A stretch of 39,062 nt of DNA from a virus. Taxonomy: Duplodnaviria; Caudoviricetes. This document shows, one piece after another, positions 7,624 to 25,196 of the stretch. The first letter of the stretch is position 1. Every line of letters starts with the position of its first letter. Made by a program: the position numbers and the translations under genes. The notes below the pieces were generated by a model. It worked only from the letters and a program-made list of their open reading frames with translations. It made no database searches and was not told the origin of the DNA. The DNA lies in IMG/VR virus record IMGVR_UViG_3300027820_000018, positions 1 through 39,062 of that record; one strand, given 5' to 3'.

Positions 7624-7834
7624 GTTTGGTACTCCCTTTCATGTTTTTGAGCGCTTCCGTTGGTTTGGTGTTCTCAATCACAACGCGCCTTGCCAGCTCC
7701 CTGGGATTTACCCGGTTTTGCTTTGCAACGGCTCTCAGCGTCTGCGGTTTCCGGTCGTGGATTATCACTCGGTCTAGCAGTGAGTCAGTGACGATTCCAG
7801 CCAGAATCTTGTCGCGTTCAGTTATAATCATCAC
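7616..7834 (-). CDS. Hypothetical protein, possible HTH
   Basis: TLRAVAKQNRVNPRELARRV; overlaps neighbours. Confidence 0.55.
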   Translation of the reverse strand: MMIITERDKILAGIVTDSLLDRVIIHDRKPQTLRAVAKQNRVNPRELARRVVIENTKPTEALKNMKGSTKRG

Positions 7835-8009
7835 GCACGCTCCTGTAAAAACGTGGGCCAGTCATCAGCAAGTCCATATCGTGCCAGCCAGCTTTCCACC
7901 ACGCCTGCTCAATCAATCTGGCCTTGCCATAAGGGCATTGGTCGGAGCCGTCGATTGCCTTTCTAGCCTCAACCCCCTCCTGATACGCTTTATTTATCCC
8001 ATCTGCCAT
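7818..8009 (-). CDS. Rmf/CrpP-fold (ribosome modulation factor-like) protein
   Basis: AYQEG...CPY...AWWKAGWHD matches the Rmf pattern G..A.....CPY......W..GW. Confidence 0.65.
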   Translation of the reverse strand: MADGINKAYQEGVEARKAIDGSDQCPYGKARLIEQAWWKAGWHDMDLLMTGPRFYRSVRDDYN

Positions 8010-9184: not shown

Positions 9185-9245
9185 ACATAACAAAGCGTTA
9201 AATTTAGACGTTCGCAGGCTCACGCCCATTAACGCCGGGTTATAG
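9185..9245 (+). repeat. attC-like site B (61 bp)
   Basis: ACATAAC-AAAGC-GTTAAAT...TAGAC...ATTAAC-GCCGG-GTTATAG; near-identical to the reverse complement of 19728-19789. Confidence 0.8.
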
Positions 9246-9442
9246 TCGCCACATCACGCTTCGCAGCGGCTTAGGCAATGCGCTAGCTTATCTGCGCTAT
9301 AGCAATCACCTCCGGTTAGATGGTGATTCTTCGTCACAGGGTGCTGTGATGTTAGGTATACGCGCCGTGTTAATGTTAAGTAAGACCCACGACAGTCAAG
9401 CATTAACCCCGAAATAAGGGTATCAGGTGGCGCGTATTCGAC

Positions 9443-9557
9443 TGGTGACTGGCTGGGATTCGAACCCGTTATCCAGACTTGCGCATCAGTGGGTTATCAT
9501 CCCTACCGAAATTTATTTGGCGTGATTAAAGCCGTTGCTCAAGTCGTCCAATCACCA
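9443..9557 (-). ncRNA. tRNA-like structured RNA candidate (acceptor-like stem plus T-loop, non-canonical body)
   Basis: Minus strand TGGTGATTGG...GGGTTCGAATCCC-AG-CCAGTCACCA; internal stem GACTTGAGC/GCGCAAGTC. Confidence 0.4.
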
Positions 9558-9966
9558 TGCTAATACGCCCTGCTTTTGGCCGGAGCAGGAACCAGGAACC
9601 CTCTGTCGCCATCGGCGGGCCTACCGACTTTATCCGGGATAGCTGATACCCCTGACTTGCACATTACTGGGTAAGAAAAGAAGGAGCCTAATCTTTAACC
9701 ACGGGGTGCGAACCCGTTTTTCAGTCCGCATTTCAGCGGCGGCATGTGCCAGACCTGATAAATTTAATGGAGTGGCCACTGGTGTGTTTGTGTGGCTTGC
9801 CGCGTCAAAAGGCACTCATAGACGACTATTTTCAGGTATCACGGATTTCTCTAACCTTCAATTTGGTGCGCATCACCACTACGCCCTCACTCCATAAGCA
9901 AATAGTAGCAAAGCCACGGAACGGCGCACCTTGTATTGTGTAAGGAAGTGTCAAGATGCGTAGGCA

Positions 9967-9990
9967 TAAAAAAGCCCGGACGTACCGGGC
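9967..9990 (-). terminator. Rho-independent terminator
   Basis: GCCCGG-TACGT-CCGGGC-TTTTTT on the minus strand, downstream of 10029..10721. Confidence 0.8.
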
Positions 9991-10028
9991 AAAGAGTTAC
10001 GGAGTCACGAAAACCCCAAGGCATGATG

Positions 10029-10721
10029 TCAGTCTTCAGGGTTGCTGGCAAGCTCTTGCGCTCTGATTGCGCTGGCTACGATGTCTTTCATGTCCTGATC
10101 CAGTGTTTTGTGGCCGCGCTCTCCAGGTTGCAACGCCTTCTTTATCAGGTGCTGTAGTGCTGGGTTTTCTACCTTCCACGCTTTCAGCACATCGTAAACA
10201 TCAACCCAGACCCCCGGAGCAATTTCCCGGTGGTACTTGCTTTTCTTTGGCTTGAACGCAACATCACGCGGGTCGTATTCAGGCGGCGGTATGTCGTAAT
10301 GCTCGCCATCGTTGCCGTTCTGCCCGATAGCGTCGGCGCGTTGTTCGGGCCAGTCTTCGGCGCGACATAGCTTAAATCTTTTGCATATCAACATGCCGTC
10401 AATGCCTCTAGCGCCCCAGTCGAATAAAGACGCTTGGACTGTCATCGACCCACCGATAGAATTGCTTAGCTCTATAATGACCATGTCATCCGGCAATACA
10501 GGACACTCCCCGCCGTTGTGGTCTATCCAGTCGTAGAGCGGGCTGAAGTCGATGCCCTTTGTTATTGATGCCGTGTGATCGTTTGTAGCATTTGACAAGA
10601 GCCAACCCTCATTCCAGAACTGCCAGCCCGTACCTTCGAGCTTATAGAATCCGGTCAGCTCGCCAGAATGAGTCGCCCCAACCCGATGCGCAAAAAGCAG
10701 CTGCTCAGTTGTTAGTTTCAT
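10029..10721 (-). CDS. Multi-domain hypothetical phage protein
   Basis: WIDHNGGECPV segment plus a C-terminal VDVYDVLKAW...HLIKKAL.PG.RGHK domain typical of phage proteins. Confidence 0.75.
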   Translation of the reverse strand: MKLTTEQLLFAHRVGATHSGELTGFYKLEGTGWQFWNEGWLLSNATNDHTASITKGIDFSPLYDWIDHNGGECPVLPDDMVIIELSNSIGGSMTVQASLFDWGARGIDGMLICKRFKLCRAEDWPEQRADAIGQNGNDGEHYDIPPPEYDPRDVAFKPKKSKYHREIAPGVWVDVYDVLKAWKVENPALQHLIKKALQPGERGHKTLDQDMKDIVASAIRAQELASNPED

Positions 10722-14535: not shown

Positions 14536-14735
14536 ATCAGGGAAAATGCTGCGACAGTCCAGCCGTGAAGGACTTGTCGCAAGGGCTTGGCAGTGAGCGG
14601 CATCTTTACTGCTCAAAGTGCAAGGCGCACACATGGCGCGGCAAGTTCTACAGCCAGAAAGACTGGGAAGCATGGATAAACGGAGAAGATGATGAAAGTA
14701 ACGCTTTTTTACTGTCACAAGACAGGCAAGTTTGA
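14532..14735 (+). CDS. Small Cys/His protein, paralogue 1
   Basis: CC...KDLSQGLG..RHLYC..CKAHTWRG; TTG start overlapping the upstream stop is inferred. Confidence 0.6.
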   Translation: MNQGKCCDSPAVKDLSQGLGSERHLYCSKCKAHTWRGKFYSQKDWEAWINGEDDESNAFLLSQDRQV

Positions 14736-16013: not shown

Positions 16014-16192
16014 ATCAGGCTCTGATAGACCACTGCAACAGCGTGGGCAAAGACAAGCACGGCCTTACCGACTGCCGAAACTGCCCTGCCGGTGTTCGTG
16101 CGGAGTGTTTCAAGCAGGTGCCACTGACGTATCAGGCAATAGCAGAGAAAGAGGAACGGATGAATGAACTGCTGCAACAATCCGCAGATTAA
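16010..16192 (+). CDS. Small Cys-rich hypothetical protein
   Basis: 60 aa; C..CP....C; coupled start. Confidence 0.5.
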   Translation: MNQALIDHCNSVGKDKHGLTDCRNCPAGVRAECFKQVPLTYQAIAEKEERMNELLQQSAD

Positions 16193-16313
16193 AGACCTGT
16201 CGCAAGGTCTGGGCGAACTCCGGCACCTTTACTGTGCGATCTGTAAGGCGCATACATGGCGCGGAGTGTTCTACACACGGCAGGAGTGGGATAACTGGAT
16301 AAATGAGGGCTAG
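16164..16313 (+). CDS. Small Cys/His protein, paralogue 2 (49 aa)
   Basis: MNCCNNPQIKDLSQGLGELRHLYCAICKAHTWRGVFYTRQEWDNWINEG; clearly homologous to 14532..14735. Confidence 0.7.
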   Translation: MNCCNNPQIKDLSQGLGELRHLYCAICKAHTWRGVFYTRQEWDNWINEG

Positions 16314-17757: not shown

Positions 17758-19082
17758 TGCTTTACTCACTGGAAGCAGAGCAGAGCGTACTGGGTGCGCT
17801 GATGCTGGAAGAAACGGTTTATGACCAGATACTGGAGACAGGAATAGCCCCGGGTGATTTCTTCAAACCTGAGCATCAGGCCATTGCTGAATCAATCTTT
17901 GCACTTGCTGATAACGGTCAGTCTGTAGATATGATTACCGTAGTCGAGCGTCTGGAAGAAACGCGGGAAATTGAAAATGTTGGTGGTGCTGCGTATGTGT
18001 CGCACCTGACTGACGTTGCGCTTTCGATTGATAACGCTAAGGCCTACGCGAAAATCATCACGGAGCGCAGCCGGTCGCGTCAGTTTAAAACGATGGGCCT
18101 GAATGTCTCAGAGCTGGCTGACGAACGTACAGCGCCTTCTGAGATAGAGGACTACATAGCGCAGGAGGTTGCGCGGATTTCATCAGGCGCGAAGAAAAAC
18201 AACAGTCTGTCGTCTGCTGAGGCGGCAAAAGCTGTCATTGATGAGCTAGCGAGCGGAGAAGTAACACAGATTTACACCAGCGGCCTGACTGACCTTGACC
18301 GCCTATGGTATCCAGAACCCGGGCGGCTTCATGTAATCGCCGGGCGCCCGAAGATGGGCAAAAGTTCGCTGGCTCAGATGTTCCTAGAGGCAAACGCTCT
18401 GAAAGGCATCCCGGGCTATAATGCAACTTTGGAAATGCCAGCAAAGGAGATGGCAAAGCGACACATTGCTAGTCTTGGGCGCATGGATAGAGCTTTTTTT
18501 AAGCAACTCGACAACCACCCCGGGGCCGATGAGCAATACGGAAAGCTGTCAGCCGGTACTAAGATATTTAAAGACCTGCCAATACAGATTGATTTTTGCC
18601 CGGGTGTGCGAGTATCTGAGATTGTAAACCGTGCCCGCACATGGCTGCGAAAGCAGGAGCGATACAGAGACAAAGGTGAAGGGCTGCTGGTGGTTGACCA
18701 CTTGGGCCTGATTAGCCTCCCGGGTAAAGGTAACGCCGTTGAAGAAATTGGGGATATTACCACGCGCCTGAAAAACCTAGCAGGCGAGCTGAATATTCCT
18801 GTAATCCTTCTTTGTCAGTTAAACAGGGGATTGGAGCAACGACCAGATAAACGGCCCGTGACAAGCGACCTGCGCGGCTCTGGACGCATTGAAGAGGACG
18901 CTGACACTATCACGTTTGTTTATCAGGACAGTGTTTACCATGAAGATTCACCAGATAAAGGTGTTGCCGAACTGATTACAAGCGCAAACCGTAACGGGGA
19001 ATCAGGAACTGTCCGGGTGTCAGCAAACCTGCGTTCTAGCCGTTTTGATAACCTGCAATCCGCATACGACTATCAAGATTGA
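17757..19082 (+). CDS. dnaB: DnaB-like replicative helicase
   Basis: EAEQSVLGALM, GRPKMGKS Walker A, VDHL, QLNR, DLRGSGRIEEDAD. Confidence 0.95.
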   Translation: MLYSLEAEQSVLGALMLEETVYDQILETGIAPGDFFKPEHQAIAESIFALADNGQSVDMITVVERLEETREIENVGGAAYVSHLTDVALSIDNAKAYAKIITERSRSRQFKTMGLNVSELADERTAPSEIEDYIAQEVARISSGAKKNNSLSSAEAAKAVIDELASGEVTQIYTSGLTDLDRLWYPEPGRLHVIAGRPKMGKSSLAQMFLEANALKGIPGYNATLEMPAKEMAKRHIASLGRMDRAFFKQLDNHPGADEQYGKLSAGTKIFKDLPIQIDFCPGVRVSEIVNRARTWLRKQERYRDKGEGLLVVDHLGLISLPGKGNAVEEIGDITTRLKNLAGELNIPVILLCQLNRGLEQRPDKRPVTSDLRGSGRIEEDADTITFVYQDSVYHEDSPDKGVAELITSANRNGESGTVRVSANLRSSRFDNLQSAYDYQD

Positions 19083-19091
19083 GAGGACGAT

Positions 19092-19415
19092 ATGTTAAAG
19101 CTATTCAAAAGAGAGAAAGGCGCTGAACTGACTGTTAATGATTCAGTGAAGACAGTTCGATACTCAGTAAGCGATGAGTCTATACAGAATATTCTGGAGA
19201 TGATTCACGAGTTTCAGAGCGTTTACGATGGCGACACCTTCGGCGGATGCAACTTCAGGGATAGAGAGGTCTCACAGATGTCAGATTATCTGATGGGTAT
19301 AGCTGCGACACTGAGAGACCCGAGAGAGCTGGAGGCTATAGCTAGTTTTCTAAACAGGGTTAATTCCAATCTTTCAATGTATATCGAAAGGACTGAGGTT
19401 GAGGGTGTTGAATGA
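19092..19415 (+). CDS. Hypothetical protein
   Basis: RBS gagga; 107 aa. Confidence 0.65.
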   Translation: MLKLFKREKGAELTVNDSVKTVRYSVSDESIQNILEMIHEFQSVYDGDTFGGCNFRDREVSQMSDYLMGIAATLRDPRELEAIASFLNRVNSNLSMYIERTEVEGVE

Positions 19416-19663
19416 AACCGCACCAGCTAATGACAGGCGACAACCCGCACCACTGGATAACCAGAAAGCACGAGCTGATGGCGTCCGGACAGTGCTGTTT
19501 CGTCGCTGGGCGTAGGTTCCGAGACTGGGCTTACTACGATACAACAGAACGGCAAGCGCGGTGTCTTGGTCACTGGCACAAGGCAATGCGGATTGTAAAC
19601 ATTCAGCGCCTACGCCATCGCGGCAACCGGAACCGCTGGGGATTCTTTGATAGGTATTACTAA
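19412..19663 (+). CDS. Hypothetical basic protein
   Basis: ATGA coupling; 83 aa. Confidence 0.5.
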   Translation: MKPHQLMTGDNPHHWITRKHELMASGQCCFVAGRRFRDWAYYDTTERQARCLGHWHKAMRIVNIQRLRHRGNRNRWGFFDRYY

Positions 19664-19727
19664 TCAGGTGTAGAAAATCGGTAGGAAGAACCAATTAGCG
19701 GGATTCTGGCTGGTTGGTATGATTGGA

Positions 19728-19789
19728 GAATAACCCGGCGTTAATGGGCGAGAACCTGCGAACGTCACCGATTAAACGCTTTGTTATGC
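19728..19789 (-). repeat. attC-like site 1 (62 bp)
   Basis: Minus strand GCATAAC-AAAGC-GTT(T)AAT...GTGAC...ATTAAC-GCCGG-GTTATTC. Confidence 0.8.
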
Positions 19790-19807
19790 CATTACTGAGG
19801 ATTTGAA

Positions 19808-20134
19808 ATGGAAATGGAAATTGAAAAGCAGCGATTGGAAGACAGAAGCGTCAATTATGTACAGGCGCTCATACAGACAGAGAGTGATTGCGACCCATCT
19901 ATTGGCGAGTATTCCTTGAGCATTACGGGCTTTATTGGGAGTCTTGATTTATCCAGTGGCGGCGGAACAGACGATATTTCGCTGATCAAAGATGCAATCG
20001 AAAATCATGTTGATTTTACGAGTCTGCCGCCGGAAGGCTGGACTGAAGTACTGCTAAAAGAATCTGGCGAATGGGAAGATTCTTTTTGGCATAAATACTA
20101 TGAGATTGCGAGCGTAGTAATGAATGCGGTATAA
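19808..20134 (+). CDS. Cassette-like ORF 1, acidic hypothetical protein (108 aa)
   Basis: Fills the space between sites 1 and 2; ends GTA TAA C within the core of site 2. Confidence 0.75.
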   Translation: MEMEIEKQRLEDRSVNYVQALIQTESDCDPSIGEYSLSITGFIGSLDLSSGGGTDDISLIKDAIENHVDFTSLPPEGWTEVLLKESGEWEDSFWHKYYEIASVVMNAV

Positions 20135-20197
20135 CCTTGCCATAAGCGGCAAGAGAGCGCAGCGAACGCTGTCCGATTTTTAATGGCGTTGTTATAC
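20129..20197 (-). repeat. attC-like site 2 (69 bp)
   Basis: Minus strand GTATAAC-AACGC-CAT(T)AA...CGGAC...TTCGCTGCGCTC...CCGCTTATG-GCAAG-GTTATAC. Confidence 0.82.
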
Positions 20198-20222
20198 GCC
20201 GACTAACTACAGGTGACAGATT

Positions 20223-20441
20223 ATGAGTATTGAAATTAAGAAGTACCGAAAAAAACAAGAGCAGCCTATGTTCCCTTGGTTTCCAGGTTTTGATATGGGA
20301 GGAGTCTCTGTTTCGGATGCGGATAAACAAAACGGCAGCCCAAAGCCGGGGGACATGATTGCAATTAACCCTAGCAACCATGCCGATCAATGGTTAGTTG
20401 CTGAAAAGTTCTTTCGGGATAATTACGTTGAGAGCGTATAA
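20223..20441 (+). CDS. Cassette-like ORF 2, conserved small phage protein (72 aa)
   Basis: GSPKPGDMIAINPSNHADQWLVAEKFFRDNY; ends GTA TAA C within the core of site 3. Confidence 0.8.
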   Translation: MSIEIKKYRKKQEQPMFPWFPGFDMGGVSVSDADKQNGSPKPGDMIAINPSNHADQWLVAEKFFRDNYVESV

Positions 20442-20495
20442 CCCAGAGCTTTGCTGCCGAAGCGCAGCGAGGTCTGAAACAGTGAATTGTTATAC
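20436..20495 (-). repeat. attC-like site 3 (60 bp)
   Basis: Minus strand GTATAAC-AATTC-ACTGTTTCAGACCTCGCTGCGCTTCGGCAGCAAAGC-TCTGG-GTTATAC. Confidence 0.78.
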
Positions 20496-20510
20496 GAAAG
20501 AGAGGCACCG

Positions 20511-20702
20511 ATGAAGATGAGGCACAAAGACAGTGGTAAATATATTGCAATGAAGCCCGAATTAGTCAAAGAGGGAGCGGATCACCCTTGGGTTTTGGTT
20601 GATAGCGAAGCGGAGGCAACGATAGACCCGGGCTGGATCGGTGAGGATTACACAATGGTGATGCTTTCTGTTTTGCCACGCGGGCAATACGAGTGCGTAT
20701 AA
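20511..20702 (+). CDS. Cassette-like ORF 3, hypothetical protein (63 aa)
   Basis: RBS agagg before the ATG at 20511; ends GTA TAA C within the core of site 4. Confidence 0.7.
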   Translation: MKMRHKDSGKYIAMKPELVKEGADHPWVLVDSEAEATIDPGWIGEDYTMVMLSVLPRGQYECV

Positions 20703-20745
20703 CGCCGCACACACGGGCTATGTCCCGTGCTGGCGTGTGTTATTA
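20697..20745 (-). repeat. attC-like site 4 (49 bp)
   Basis: Minus strand TAATAAC-ACACG-CCA(G)CACGGG-ACATAG-CCCGTGTG-TGCGGC-GTTATAC. Confidence 0.72.
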
Positions 20746-20760
20746 CAGAGAGGATAGGGT

Positions 20761-21159
20761 ATGGAAGAGATAAAAAAATTACGGTTTGGACTAGGCTTTC
20801 AGGTTGAAACCGATAAAGGCCCGGTTGATTTGTACAGCGTCAACGCCGATGAAGATGTATCCGGCACATACGTCCAGTCTTCTGACTACGACGAACTACT
20901 CAGAGAACGCAACGAACTGGCTGCACAGGTGGAGCGGCTGCGGGGTGCTGCAAACGCACTGCTAATGAATAGAATGGGGATGGATGAGTGGTATGCGCTA
21001 GAGTCAGCACTAAAAGAAACCCCGGCTCAGTCGCTAGAGGCGGTTAAGCGGGAGTTAAGGCGCAATACGCTTGATTATGTTGCGCACGCCGTTAGATATG
21101 AGTTTGAAGGGCCATTCTCACCGGATGCGTTTGATGATTTTATAGAGTCTATGTCGTGA
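20761..21159 (+). CDS. Hypothetical protein with a coiled coil (Ead/Ea22-like region gene)
   Basis: YVQSSDYDELLRERNELAAQVERLR...TPAQSL. Confidence 0.7.
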   Translation: MEEIKKLRFGLGFQVETDKGPVDLYSVNADEDVSGTYVQSSDYDELLRERNELAAQVERLRGAANALLMNRMGMDEWYALESALKETPAQSLEAVKRELRRNTLDYVAHAVRYEFEGPFSPDAFDDFIESMS

Positions 21160-21192
21160 AACTCAACATGCAAAAGCAGCCGGGCGGCGTAT

Positions 21193-21543
21193 ATGAATGA
21201 ACAGTACGAATGGCTGAACCAGCTTGAACGGCTAGTTGACGCCTACAGCGACGCAAAGAGCAAGCGGACGTACCTTGAGCACTTCCGCCAATCAAAGCTG
21301 GCTATGTTGGCTGCGCAGGCGGAAACAGAAGACCCCGACAAGTACAAGACAGCTGCAAGCCGTGACGAGTACGCCCGAAGGCACCCGGAGTACATCCAGG
21401 TTCTTGAGGGTTTACGGGATGCTGTGGCAGTAGAGGAAAAATGCCGCTGGAATCTAAAGCAGCGGGAATGGAAGTTTGAAGCGTGGCGCTCTGAGCTTAG
21501 TTGGCAGAAGTCTCAGCAGCCGCGCAATGGGATAGTAACGTAA
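21193..21543 (+). CDS. Conserved helical phage protein
   Basis: YLEHFRQSKLA...ARRHPEYIQVLEGL...FEAWRS. Confidence 0.75.
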   Translation: MNEQYEWLNQLERLVDAYSDAKSKRTYLEHFRQSKLAMLAAQAETEDPDKYKTAASRDEYARRHPEYIQVLEGLRDAVAVEEKCRWNLKQREWKFEAWRSELSWQKSQQPRNGIVT

Positions 21544-22658: not shown

Positions 22659-22710
22659 CCTCCTTATGCTTTTCGCTATCAAAACACCTTTTCTTATTAA
22701 TAATCGGTAT

Positions 22711-22739
22711 TTCACTCACATGAGCCGGCCTGTTATCCT
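22711..22739 (+). promoter_or_regulatory. Promoter with an AGCCGG motif, upstream of the methyltransferase
   Basis: TTCACT-cacatgagccggcctgt(17)-TATCCT. Confidence 0.6.
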
Positions 22740-22767
22740 GTGCTTAAACAATCATTACGGAGAATGT

Positions 22768-23499
22768 ATGAATGAGTTGGCTCTTTTCGCGGGCGCTGGT
22801 GGAGGATTGCTCGCAAGTGAATTGCTCGGATGGCGAACAGTGTGCGCAGTTGAGCGTGAAGCCTACGCAGCACAAGTTCTGGCGCAACGACAGAACGATG
22901 GATTGCTCCCGCCTTTCCCGATTTGGTCTGACGTGTGCAGTTTTGACGGAAAGCCGTGGCGAGGAATTATTGATGTCATATCTGGAGGGTTTCCGTGCCA
23001 AGACATCAGCCCCGCCAGAACAAACAACGGAGGTGAGGCAAAAGGAATTGCCGGAAAAAAATCAGGGTTATGGAAAGAAAACCTCAGAATCATTGATGAA
23101 GTCAGGCCAGCTAGAGCTTTTTCAGAAAACTCATCCTGGCTCACAAGGAGAGGGCTTAACGTTGTCATTCAAGACCTTGCCGAGATCGGGTATGACTGTG
23201 CATGGACAACTATTGGCGCAGCAGGATTCGGAGCTGAGCACATACGAGAGAGGGTATGGATACTTGCCTACGCCAACGGCACACAACGCAAAGGAGGGTG
23301 CTTATCCAGCGGAATACACCAGGAATACACCAACTCTAGCAACGCACGCTGGGGGAAAGATAAACCCGGAGTGGACAGAGTGGCTGATGGGATGGTCAAT
23401 AGGGTGGACAGACTTAAAACCATTGGAAATGGGCAGGTTCCAATCGTGGCGGCAGCAGCATACAAGTATCTTGAATCGGTTATATCAAAAATAGAATAA
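22768..23499 (+). CDS. DNA cytosine-5 methyltransferase, main subunit (motifs I-VIII and X)
   Basis: LFAGAGG (I), GGFPCQDIS (IV), FSENS (VI), HIRERVWILA (VIII), RLKTIGNGQVP (X); RBS ggag. Confidence 0.92.
   Translation: MNELALFAGAGGGLLASELLGWRTVCAVEREAYAAQVLAQRQNDGLLPPFPIWSDVCSFDGKPWRGIIDVISGGFPCQDISPARTNNGGEAKGIAGKKSGLWKENLRIIDEVRPARAFSENSSWLTRRGLNVVIQDLAEIGYDCAWTTIGAAGFGAEHIRERVWILAYANGTQRKGGCLSSGIHQEYTNSSNARWGKDKPGVDRVADGMVNRVDRLKTIGNGQVPIVAAAAYKYLESVISKIE
22772..23494 (+). CDS. Nested +1-frame ORF, probable second methyltransferase subunit (TRD and motif IX)
   Basis: 240 codons open within the MTase gene; LPTPTA and INPEWTEWLMGWSIGWTD resemble TRD and motif IX; true start uncertain. Confidence 0.72.
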   Translation: MSWLFSRALVEDCSQVNCSDGEQCAQLSVKPTQHKFWRNDRTMDCSRLSRFGLTCAVLTESRGEELLMSYLEGFRAKTSAPPEQTTEVRQKELPEKNQGYGKKTSESLMKSGQLELFQKTHPGSQGEGLTLSFKTLPRSGMTVHGQLLAQQDSELSTYERGYGYLPTPTAHNAKEGAYPAEYTRNTPTLATHAGGKINPEWTEWLMGWSIGWTDLKPLEMGRFQSWRQQHTSILNRLYQK

Positions 23500-24968: not shown

Positions 24969-25196
24969 ATGGAGCTGACCAGTAGACAAAAAGATGTTTT
25001 TGCATGGATATGCAGCTACATTGATAAGAATGGGTTTTCTCCAAGCCGGGCAGAGATAGCGTCAGGGTTTGGCTTTCATCCAAATGCAGCTCAGAATCAT
25101 GTTGAGGCTCTTGAAAGAAAAGGGTTCATTCGGGTAGCCCCTGGCATTTCAAGGGGAATAGTTGTTGTAGGCGACCGCTATTGCCTGGACAAATGA
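24969..25196 (+). CDS. Stand-alone LexA-type DNA-binding domain
   Basis: LTSRQ...GFSPSRAEIASGFGF.PNAAQNHVEALERKGFI...PGISRGI; no peptidase domain. Confidence 0.88.
   Translation: MELTSRQKDVFAWICSYIDKNGFSPSRAEIASGFGFHPNAAQNHVEALERKGFIRVAPGISRGIVVVGDRYCLDK

Follow-up and report, generated by a model that had tools for sequence, protein, structure and literature searches.

Three mobile cassettes of an attC site and a reversed small gene in a phage without a recognisable tyrosine recombinase, likely moved by a host integron integrase

A small-gene array in a phage genome

Here, we describe an array of hairpin sites and small genes in a complete 39-kb phage genome (127-bp terminal repeat, CheckV 100), held as IMG/VR record IMGVR_UViG_3300027820_000018; "the window" below means this whole stretch of 39,062 nucleotides. 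Its virion genes are P22-like (portal, scaffold and coat), and the array lies in a + strand operon, flanked by a DnaB helicase gene and a RusA resolvase gene. Its own recombination genes encode Erf and a YqaJ exonuclease. None of its 75 ORFs was recognised as a tyrosine recombinase by Pfam or PHROGs, a six-frame search of the window gave no PF00589 match, and tblastn of IntI against the window gave nothing better than E 1.1, all in agreement with the original prediction that the genome has no recognisable tyrosine recombinase. The whole stretch is present in three runs, all of them marine sediment metagenomes and possible sources of the phage DNA, and no RNA dataset is listed among these runs.

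Close relatives and hosts were sought in reference collections. By blastn against 50,697 GenBank phages, the array had only chance matches of 26 bp, and no DnaB relatives at 60% identity or above were found. In a search for the host, the portal protein was absent from 190 genomes of one family, and a motif of the s1 site family had matches in 24 of 401 genomes. Inspection of 20 loci showed mostly chance matches and two canonical attC sites (L380 and L382), L382 coming from a genome with 28 matches to the motif and an intI elsewhere. Other features of the window include a ribosome modulation factor-like protein (7818-8009, - strand; Pfam RMF, E 1e-8) and a 137-bp direct repeat (71%; 14544-14680 and 16167-16303) that spans a duplicated small Cys-rich ORF. 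Two long + strand ORFs overlap in different frames (22666-23499 and 22772-23494), the first a C5 methyltransferase and the second also matching PHROGs labelled as methyltransferases. A short intergenic element (21155-21192) is conserved in related loci L008 and L010 and in many contigs of other runs, and the 132-aa ORF in front of it varies in patches.

The array consists of four sites bounded by TAAC and GTTA, s1 to s4, that alternate with three small ORFs (Table 1). This layout had been noticed in the original prediction, and its core-to-core coordinates were confirmed; the site lengths of 49-69 bp given there equal 43-63 bp from core to core plus 3-bp flanks. All three ORFs end GTA TAA C, as had also been noticed, with the TAA of the following site's core serving as stop codon. 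A fifth site, s5, which the earlier account overlooked, lies upstream of, and antisense to, a - strand ORF (9167-9000), with no matching closing core within 900 bp.

Table 1. Sites, cassettes and ORFs of the array and the solitary site s5 (positions in the window; "grammar" is L-box pairing with the antisense strand taken as top against the sense strand taken as top)
Feature	Positions	Length	Strand	Observations
s1, attC site	19731-19786	56 bp	-	R1 32.9 bits; grammar 6/7 against 3/7
s2, attC site	20132-20194	63 bp	-	R1 21.3 bits, E 0.003; grammar 5 against 3
s3, attC-like site, irregular L box	20439-20492	54 bp	-	R1 12.4 bits, E 0.71; grammar 5 against 3
s4, short end site, irregular	20700-20742	43 bp	-	no R1 match; grammar 6 against 3
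s5, solitary attC site	9188-9242		+	88% like s1; R1 28 bits on the + strand
Cassette 1 (s1 + ORF1)	19734-20134	401 bp	+	ends 7/8 complementary
Cassette 2 (s2 + ORF2)	20135-20441	307 bp	+	ends 9/9 complementary
Cassette 3 (s3 + ORF3)	20442-20702	261 bp	+	unit found in another contig
ORF1	19808-20134	108 aa	+	no Pfam, PHROG or NCBIfam match
ORF2	20223-20441	72 aa	+	common unnamed phage family
ORF3	20511-20702	63 aa	+	from ATG behind an RBS; no Pfam, PHROGs or NCBIfam family match

The cargo received no function from Pfam, PHROGs, NCBIfam, Atlas, Foldseek or VIA. ORF1 has 44 homologues, nothing in Atlas, and a homologue between such sites in two of nine other viral loci (L092 and L098). The ORF2 family occurs in 363 stretches of IMG/VR, and its Atlas clusters are 80-89% viral and unnamed. 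Homologues of ORF2 with visible flanks, in an inspection that excluded L033-L052, are mostly ordinary phage genes without sites, and one, in L016, sits inside an array with the polarity described below. Among the loci that were fetched, ORF3 was confined to near-identical versions of this phage. Structure models of the cargo are confident (pLDDT 87 and 83) and had no Foldseek match; a likeness to an ATP-grasp subdomain (best VIA Z 5.5) was uninformative and was set aside. No sigma-70 promoter was called on the + strand in 19000-21300. A -10-like hexamer, TATGAT, stands directly upstream of s1 (19698-19723) and of an s1-like site in L002 (9817-9845), and the promoter scan did not call the one upstream of s1. 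Directly upstream of s5, the window has a stretch without family-matched ORFs (9250-10030). L002 shares about 200 bp of it at 78% identity, and L006 has shorter pieces; the stretch is possibly a structured non-coding element, and Rfam had no match anywhere in the window.

Sites of attC type read backwards relative to their genes

A scan of GTDB with a motif based on the s1 sequence in ORF sense returned 164 loci, many of which are arrays. Nine of these loci have an integrase candidate, and all eight candidates tested passed TIGR02249. At 186 of 207 distinct bacterial sites the adjoining right-hand ORF is on the opposite strand, so the ORF-sense motif of s1 corresponds to the bottom strand of attC. 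A covariance model, R1, was built from 14 of the GTDB attC sites in top-strand orientation and served for the covariance search that had been suggested as a check. On the window, it matched s1, s2 and s5, and s3 weakly, each antisense to its ORF, and missed s4, with a best score of 9.5 bits elsewhere in the genome outside attC-like sites. The scores of s1 and s5 are partly circular because a motif derived from s1 selected the training sites, and that of s2 is less so; R1 found no site in three of five phages checked from the set of Qi et al.

Structure was also assessed independently of R1. All five sites have R''/R' cores (AAC...GTT) with 5-bp spacers, and in all five the L boxes pair around an extrahelical base at 5-6 of 7 positions with the antisense strand as top and at 3-4 of 7 with the sense strand as top. 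Applied to the whole genome, this structural attC grammar passes s1-s4, s5 and two probable false calls, and on ten simulated genomes it gave 0-4 scattered calls each. By R1 for s1 and s2, and by the grammar for all four, the array is a group of nearby attC sites in one orientation, which, together with the lack of an integron integrase, is how a CALIN is defined. On the + strand, s2, s3 and s4 fold better than their shuffles (z-scores -2.0, -3.5 and -2.7), and s1 folds no better than its shuffles (-0.2). The minimum-energy fold of the ORF-sense strand pairs the cores in s1-s3, and for s2 the core-paired fold is the minimum-energy fold on the + strand only.

In attC sites, the extrahelical bases on one arm set which strand recombines (PMC5027507). 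For s1, the canonical top strand is accordingly predicted to be the - strand, and the folded, recombining strand the + strand, in the sense of the ORF. The extrahelical base on the folded strand is A in both s1 and s2, and G is the conserved extrahelical base of classical sites (PMC5371416). The sites are of attC type and are read backwards relative to their ORFs. The ORFs are read on the attC bottom strand and follow their site, and the classical order of ORF before attC is not the one found here.

This polarity alters what a cassette is. Because the G|TT crossover is at the left core and on the strand opposite to the ORFs, the cassette is the upstream site plus its ORF. The original prediction of attC-type sites and of a crossover footprint stood, and its polarity was inverted, with the order of attC and then ORF having been missed. 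The complementarity of unit ends that it claimed (7/8, 9/9 and 8/8) was found as described; ends of a unit match better than the two ends of one site in two of the three units, and unit 3 is a tie. The end matches of units 2 and 3 are not unique to their unit, as both share the same 9-bp end. As in classical cassettes, the cassette ends rebuild a complementary R box in the predicted circle, and the predicted circle junction is more stable than the site in the array for cassette 1 (-8.8 vs -6.6 kcal/mol) and cassette 2 (-17.8 vs -14.8 kcal/mol).

The polarity of units was then compared between viral and bacterial loci, where a closed unit has at least 4 of 5 complementary bases at its ends and the bacterial side comprises 80 loci with full flanks. 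Among 52 closed viral units, which include copies of this phage's own units and are not independent, 36 are inverted, 13 canonical and 3 without an ORF; among 110 closed bacterial units, 107 are canonical, 2 inverted and 1 without an ORF. As the loci were selected by motifs or proteins derived from the window, these fractions are not genome-wide frequencies. The inverted units come from about two dozen fetched loci, with long inverted arrays in L016, L098, L318, L330, L365 and L367; 30 of the 36 terminate precisely on the TAA of the core. Units of this kind are shorter than classical ones (median 293 vs 528 bp). Calling polarity by the longest flanking ORF proved too crude, labelling the window's own s2 canonical, and was abandoned. 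In some inverted cassettes the ORF starts inside attC (L010, reverse strand, 2231-2503; L016, 2782-3057), such that the site encodes the N-terminus of the protein. ORFs that look like DNA methyltransferases by eye lie behind the last called site in L318 (2373-2993) and L330 (4133-4831), a parallel to methyltransferase cassettes that Qi et al. mention.

Movement of whole units among phages

The complementarity of unit ends is symmetric, so the two polarities are indistinguishable by it, and breakpoints between relatives can tell them apart. Contig breakpoints were compared in four runs, plus four more. A 7885-bp contig of run X6 carries 20438-20703 of the window with 3 differences (99% identical) between flanks that are both unlike the window; the match comprises s3 and ORF3, including s3 and excluding s4. 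In a contig of run X10, the match ends at 20703 too. Two related loci, L008 and L010, share an upstream gene and an s4-like site, and L010 has 295 extra bases. Read directly from the sequences, the extra segment consists of a further site and its ORF that entered at the left core; the junction overlap is 5 bp and the ends are 11/11 complementary. L294 has the filled form of this locus. The exact gain or loss of units at the core among relatives, which had been put forward as a check, is thus seen in the L008/L010 pair and in the X6 contig.

A flank test extended this to 209 distinct viral sites, which gave 29 pairs sharing one flank only. In 18 pairs the site is shared together with its right flank, in 7 the left flank is shared and the site differs, in 3 the right flank is shared and the calls of the site differ (one of these is an artefact), and in 1 the left flank is shared with the site. 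A single cassette family accounts for 15 of the 18; it is preceded by a different left neighbour in each of six phage contigs. Canonical arrays contribute 2 of the 29 pairs. A bacterial control of 40 pairs was noisier (17, 6, 9 and 8 in the same categories, the 8 being left flank with site). Over 103 viral neighbour pairs, bases beyond the core are complementary between unit ends at 3.2 of 5 positions, vs 1.9 of 5 between a site's own ends; for 198 bacterial pairs the values are 3.5 and 1.8 of 5.

From phage to phage, units of an upstream site and its ORF thus have different surroundings, and homology stops at the left TAAC; as with classical cassettes, they move whole, with breakpoints at the R' core. 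No excised circle or excision joint was found in the likely source run, which contains the stretch in one piece, although contigs drop rare forms. Related sites are also found with other cargo: those related to s3 precede other ORFs in L002, L366 and L367, and in L002 an s3-like and an s4-like site enclose a different ORF. The s4-like site of L008 has no cassette before it, and those of L010 and L002 have one each. A closing core is missing for 4 of 5 sites with an s4-type end vs 9 of 42 others, in a sample that is small and biased by the search motifs. Site s4 is possibly a fixed platform in front of which cassettes insert, at the attI position of a mirror array.

The moving enzyme, and what the cassettes mean

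We propose that these three cassettes, each a mobile attC site with a reversed small gene, are moved by the integron integrase of a host, with a probability of roughly two in three. A host integrase is proposed because the phage itself encodes no tyrosine recombinase. Of 40 viral records that contain such sites, only 3 have a PF00589 gene (2 of the 19 near-complete ones), so the activity must usually come from outside; by eye, the three genes are ordinary integrases. The enzyme is most likely the IntI of the host, which is assumed to have one, and the phage likely borrows it to swap accessory genes.

The proposed mechanism draws on integron biology, in which a site folds as a single strand, cleavage occurs in the AAC of R', a circle is formed and the product is resolved by replication. 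Single-stranded during phage replication, the ORF-sense strand would fold into the recombining hairpin. IntI would cut the left core and excise a circle, whose two ends would rebuild the R box, and the circle would enter either ahead of a further site or at a TAA-C stop; such a stop would offer, on the other strand, the GWT target of attG insertion. Since the crossover would fall at the stop codon and the new gene would read with the operon, the upstream gene would be left intact, the new gene would lie in operon direction and no integron promoter would be needed. LexA represses many intI genes. The window encodes a 75-aa protein that is entirely a LexA DNA-binding domain (24969-25196, + strand; Pfam E 2e-22), which could conceivably affect expression of a host integrase and could equally be a plain phage regulator.

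Clusters of attC sites in phages have already been published: a survey of 10,705 genomes counted 17 phage CALINs (Qi et al., 2023; PMC9892861), and the same inverted layout is present in one of them. Like the window, Pseudoalteromonas phage PH101 (NC_029094) has an attC cluster, small ORFs and no integrase; its attC top strands are on the + strand and its annotated ORFs on the - strand, and one unit has 10/10 complementary ends. IntI1 recombined five of six phage sites tested in that study, including the bottom strands of the two PH101 sites tested, which recombined as well as the attCaadA7 control (PMC9892861). An inverted-type site of a marine gammaproteobacterial phage is therefore a proven IntI substrate. 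Phage TJE1, unlike the window, has canonical polarity. The text of Qi et al. calls the PH101 and TJE1 arrays typical, without mention of ORF-to-attC polarity, and proposes capture by phages through off-target or illegitimate recombination; shuffling between phages does not figure in that text, whereas relatives of the window show it (PMC9892861). A literature search that took in few subscription journals returned no account of ORF-inverted attC cassettes as a phage class or of their shuffling between phages, and the figures and Dryad file of Qi et al. may show the polarity of PH101.

The window can also be set beside other integron systems. It shares with classical cassettes the AAC/GTT cores, 5-bp spacers and L boxes with extrahelical bases, as well as interlocking unit ends and crossover at the R' core of the site (PMC5027507, PMC5371416, PMC8352920), but its ORF is reversed, attC precedes the ORF, and the stop codon lies in the crossover core and not in R''. 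Unlike a complete integron, it has no intI next to the array; no attI or Pc was recognised, and s4 may take the place of attI. In SALIN/attG insertion, IntI directs cassettes to GWT-consensus targets that lie beyond integrons (Loot et al., bioRxiv 10.1101/2022.09.11.507474); the TAA-C stop likewise gives GWT on the other strand and s5 is solitary, while that work, in its available text, concerns bacterial genomes and does not treat phage arrays or inverted cassettes. The reverse integrons of Treponema are, like the window, an orientation variant of integrons, in which it is intI that has the reversed orientation with respect to the array, and each ORF keeps its stop in R'' ahead of its attC (PMC7691350); in the window, by contrast, the ORF is flipped relative to attC, there is no intI and the cassettes are not canonical.

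An unlikely alternative, though the best placed, keeps the same mobile cassettes and has them moved by another tyrosine recombinase, either Xer-like from the host or from a helper phage. The irregular structures of s3 and s4 and the tyrosine recombinases in 3 of the 40 viral records are in keeping with such an enzyme, but s1, s2 and s5 fit a bacterial attC model, some of whose training sites lie beside IntI genes, IntI1 works on the inverted sites of PH101, and 37 of the 40 records (17 of 19 near-complete) have no PF00589 gene.

It is improbable that the array is an inert remnant of a bacterial integron that the phage took up on a single occasion. Canonical polarity in 13 of the 52 viral units, some in apparent fragments of bacterial arrays, would suit that history, as would the proposal that CALINs are degraded integrons (PMC9024848); only 2 of 110 bacterial units, however, have the inverted polarity, and the ORF2 family is mostly viral. 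The reading is already weakened by the flank pairs, with one cassette next to six different left neighbours in six phage contigs, and by the 99% identity of cassette 3 in another context. Slightly more improbable is gene swapping by homologous recombination between conserved hairpin sites, for which the phage has its own Erf and YqaJ and for which recurring site families, such as the s3-like and s4-like sites around a different ORF in L002, would provide homology. In the 7 left-flank pairs, however, the site changes right at TAAC with few shared bases, and complementary ends specific to each unit are not predicted by this process, which may nonetheless contribute where sites are alike. That the hairpins are instead RNA elements such as terminators or processing sites is very improbable. 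Their intergenic position, sense-strand folding and one weak terminator-like call inside s2, at chance level, would suit such elements, but Rfam had no match, and an RNA function would leave the 5-bp spacers, extrahelical bases, interlocking unit ends and exact breakpoints unexplained; a secondary RNA role could accompany recombination.

With movement by a host integron integrase as the preferred reading, this case adds three things to the published phage clusters: its sites fit canonical proteobacterial attC, they can be tied to sites tested by experiment, and one of the phage's own cassettes is seen to have moved. Phage attC clusters have been reported as rare and interpreted as bacterial DNA that phages had captured; in this case, they behave as a working, phage-polarised system for gene swapping. 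Recurrence of the same cassettes in different phages and in different orders points to a site-specific route to phage mosaicism. If host IntI is the enzyme, phages would be exploiting an enzyme that belongs to a host store of anti-phage genes.

A broader model, for which the odds are distinctly less than even, is that phages of Proteobacteria hold their own pool of mirror cassettes, formed by joining attC in front of an ordinary phage gene with the stop codon as core, and shuffled among unrelated phages by host IntI. If true, the flipped cassette would be read in the phage operon and would be silent behind the host Pc promoter, and the free and cassette-bound copies of ORF2 would be snapshots from before and after the creation of a cassette. 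Gene families that are both free and cassette-bound in phages offer material on how integron cassettes are first created.
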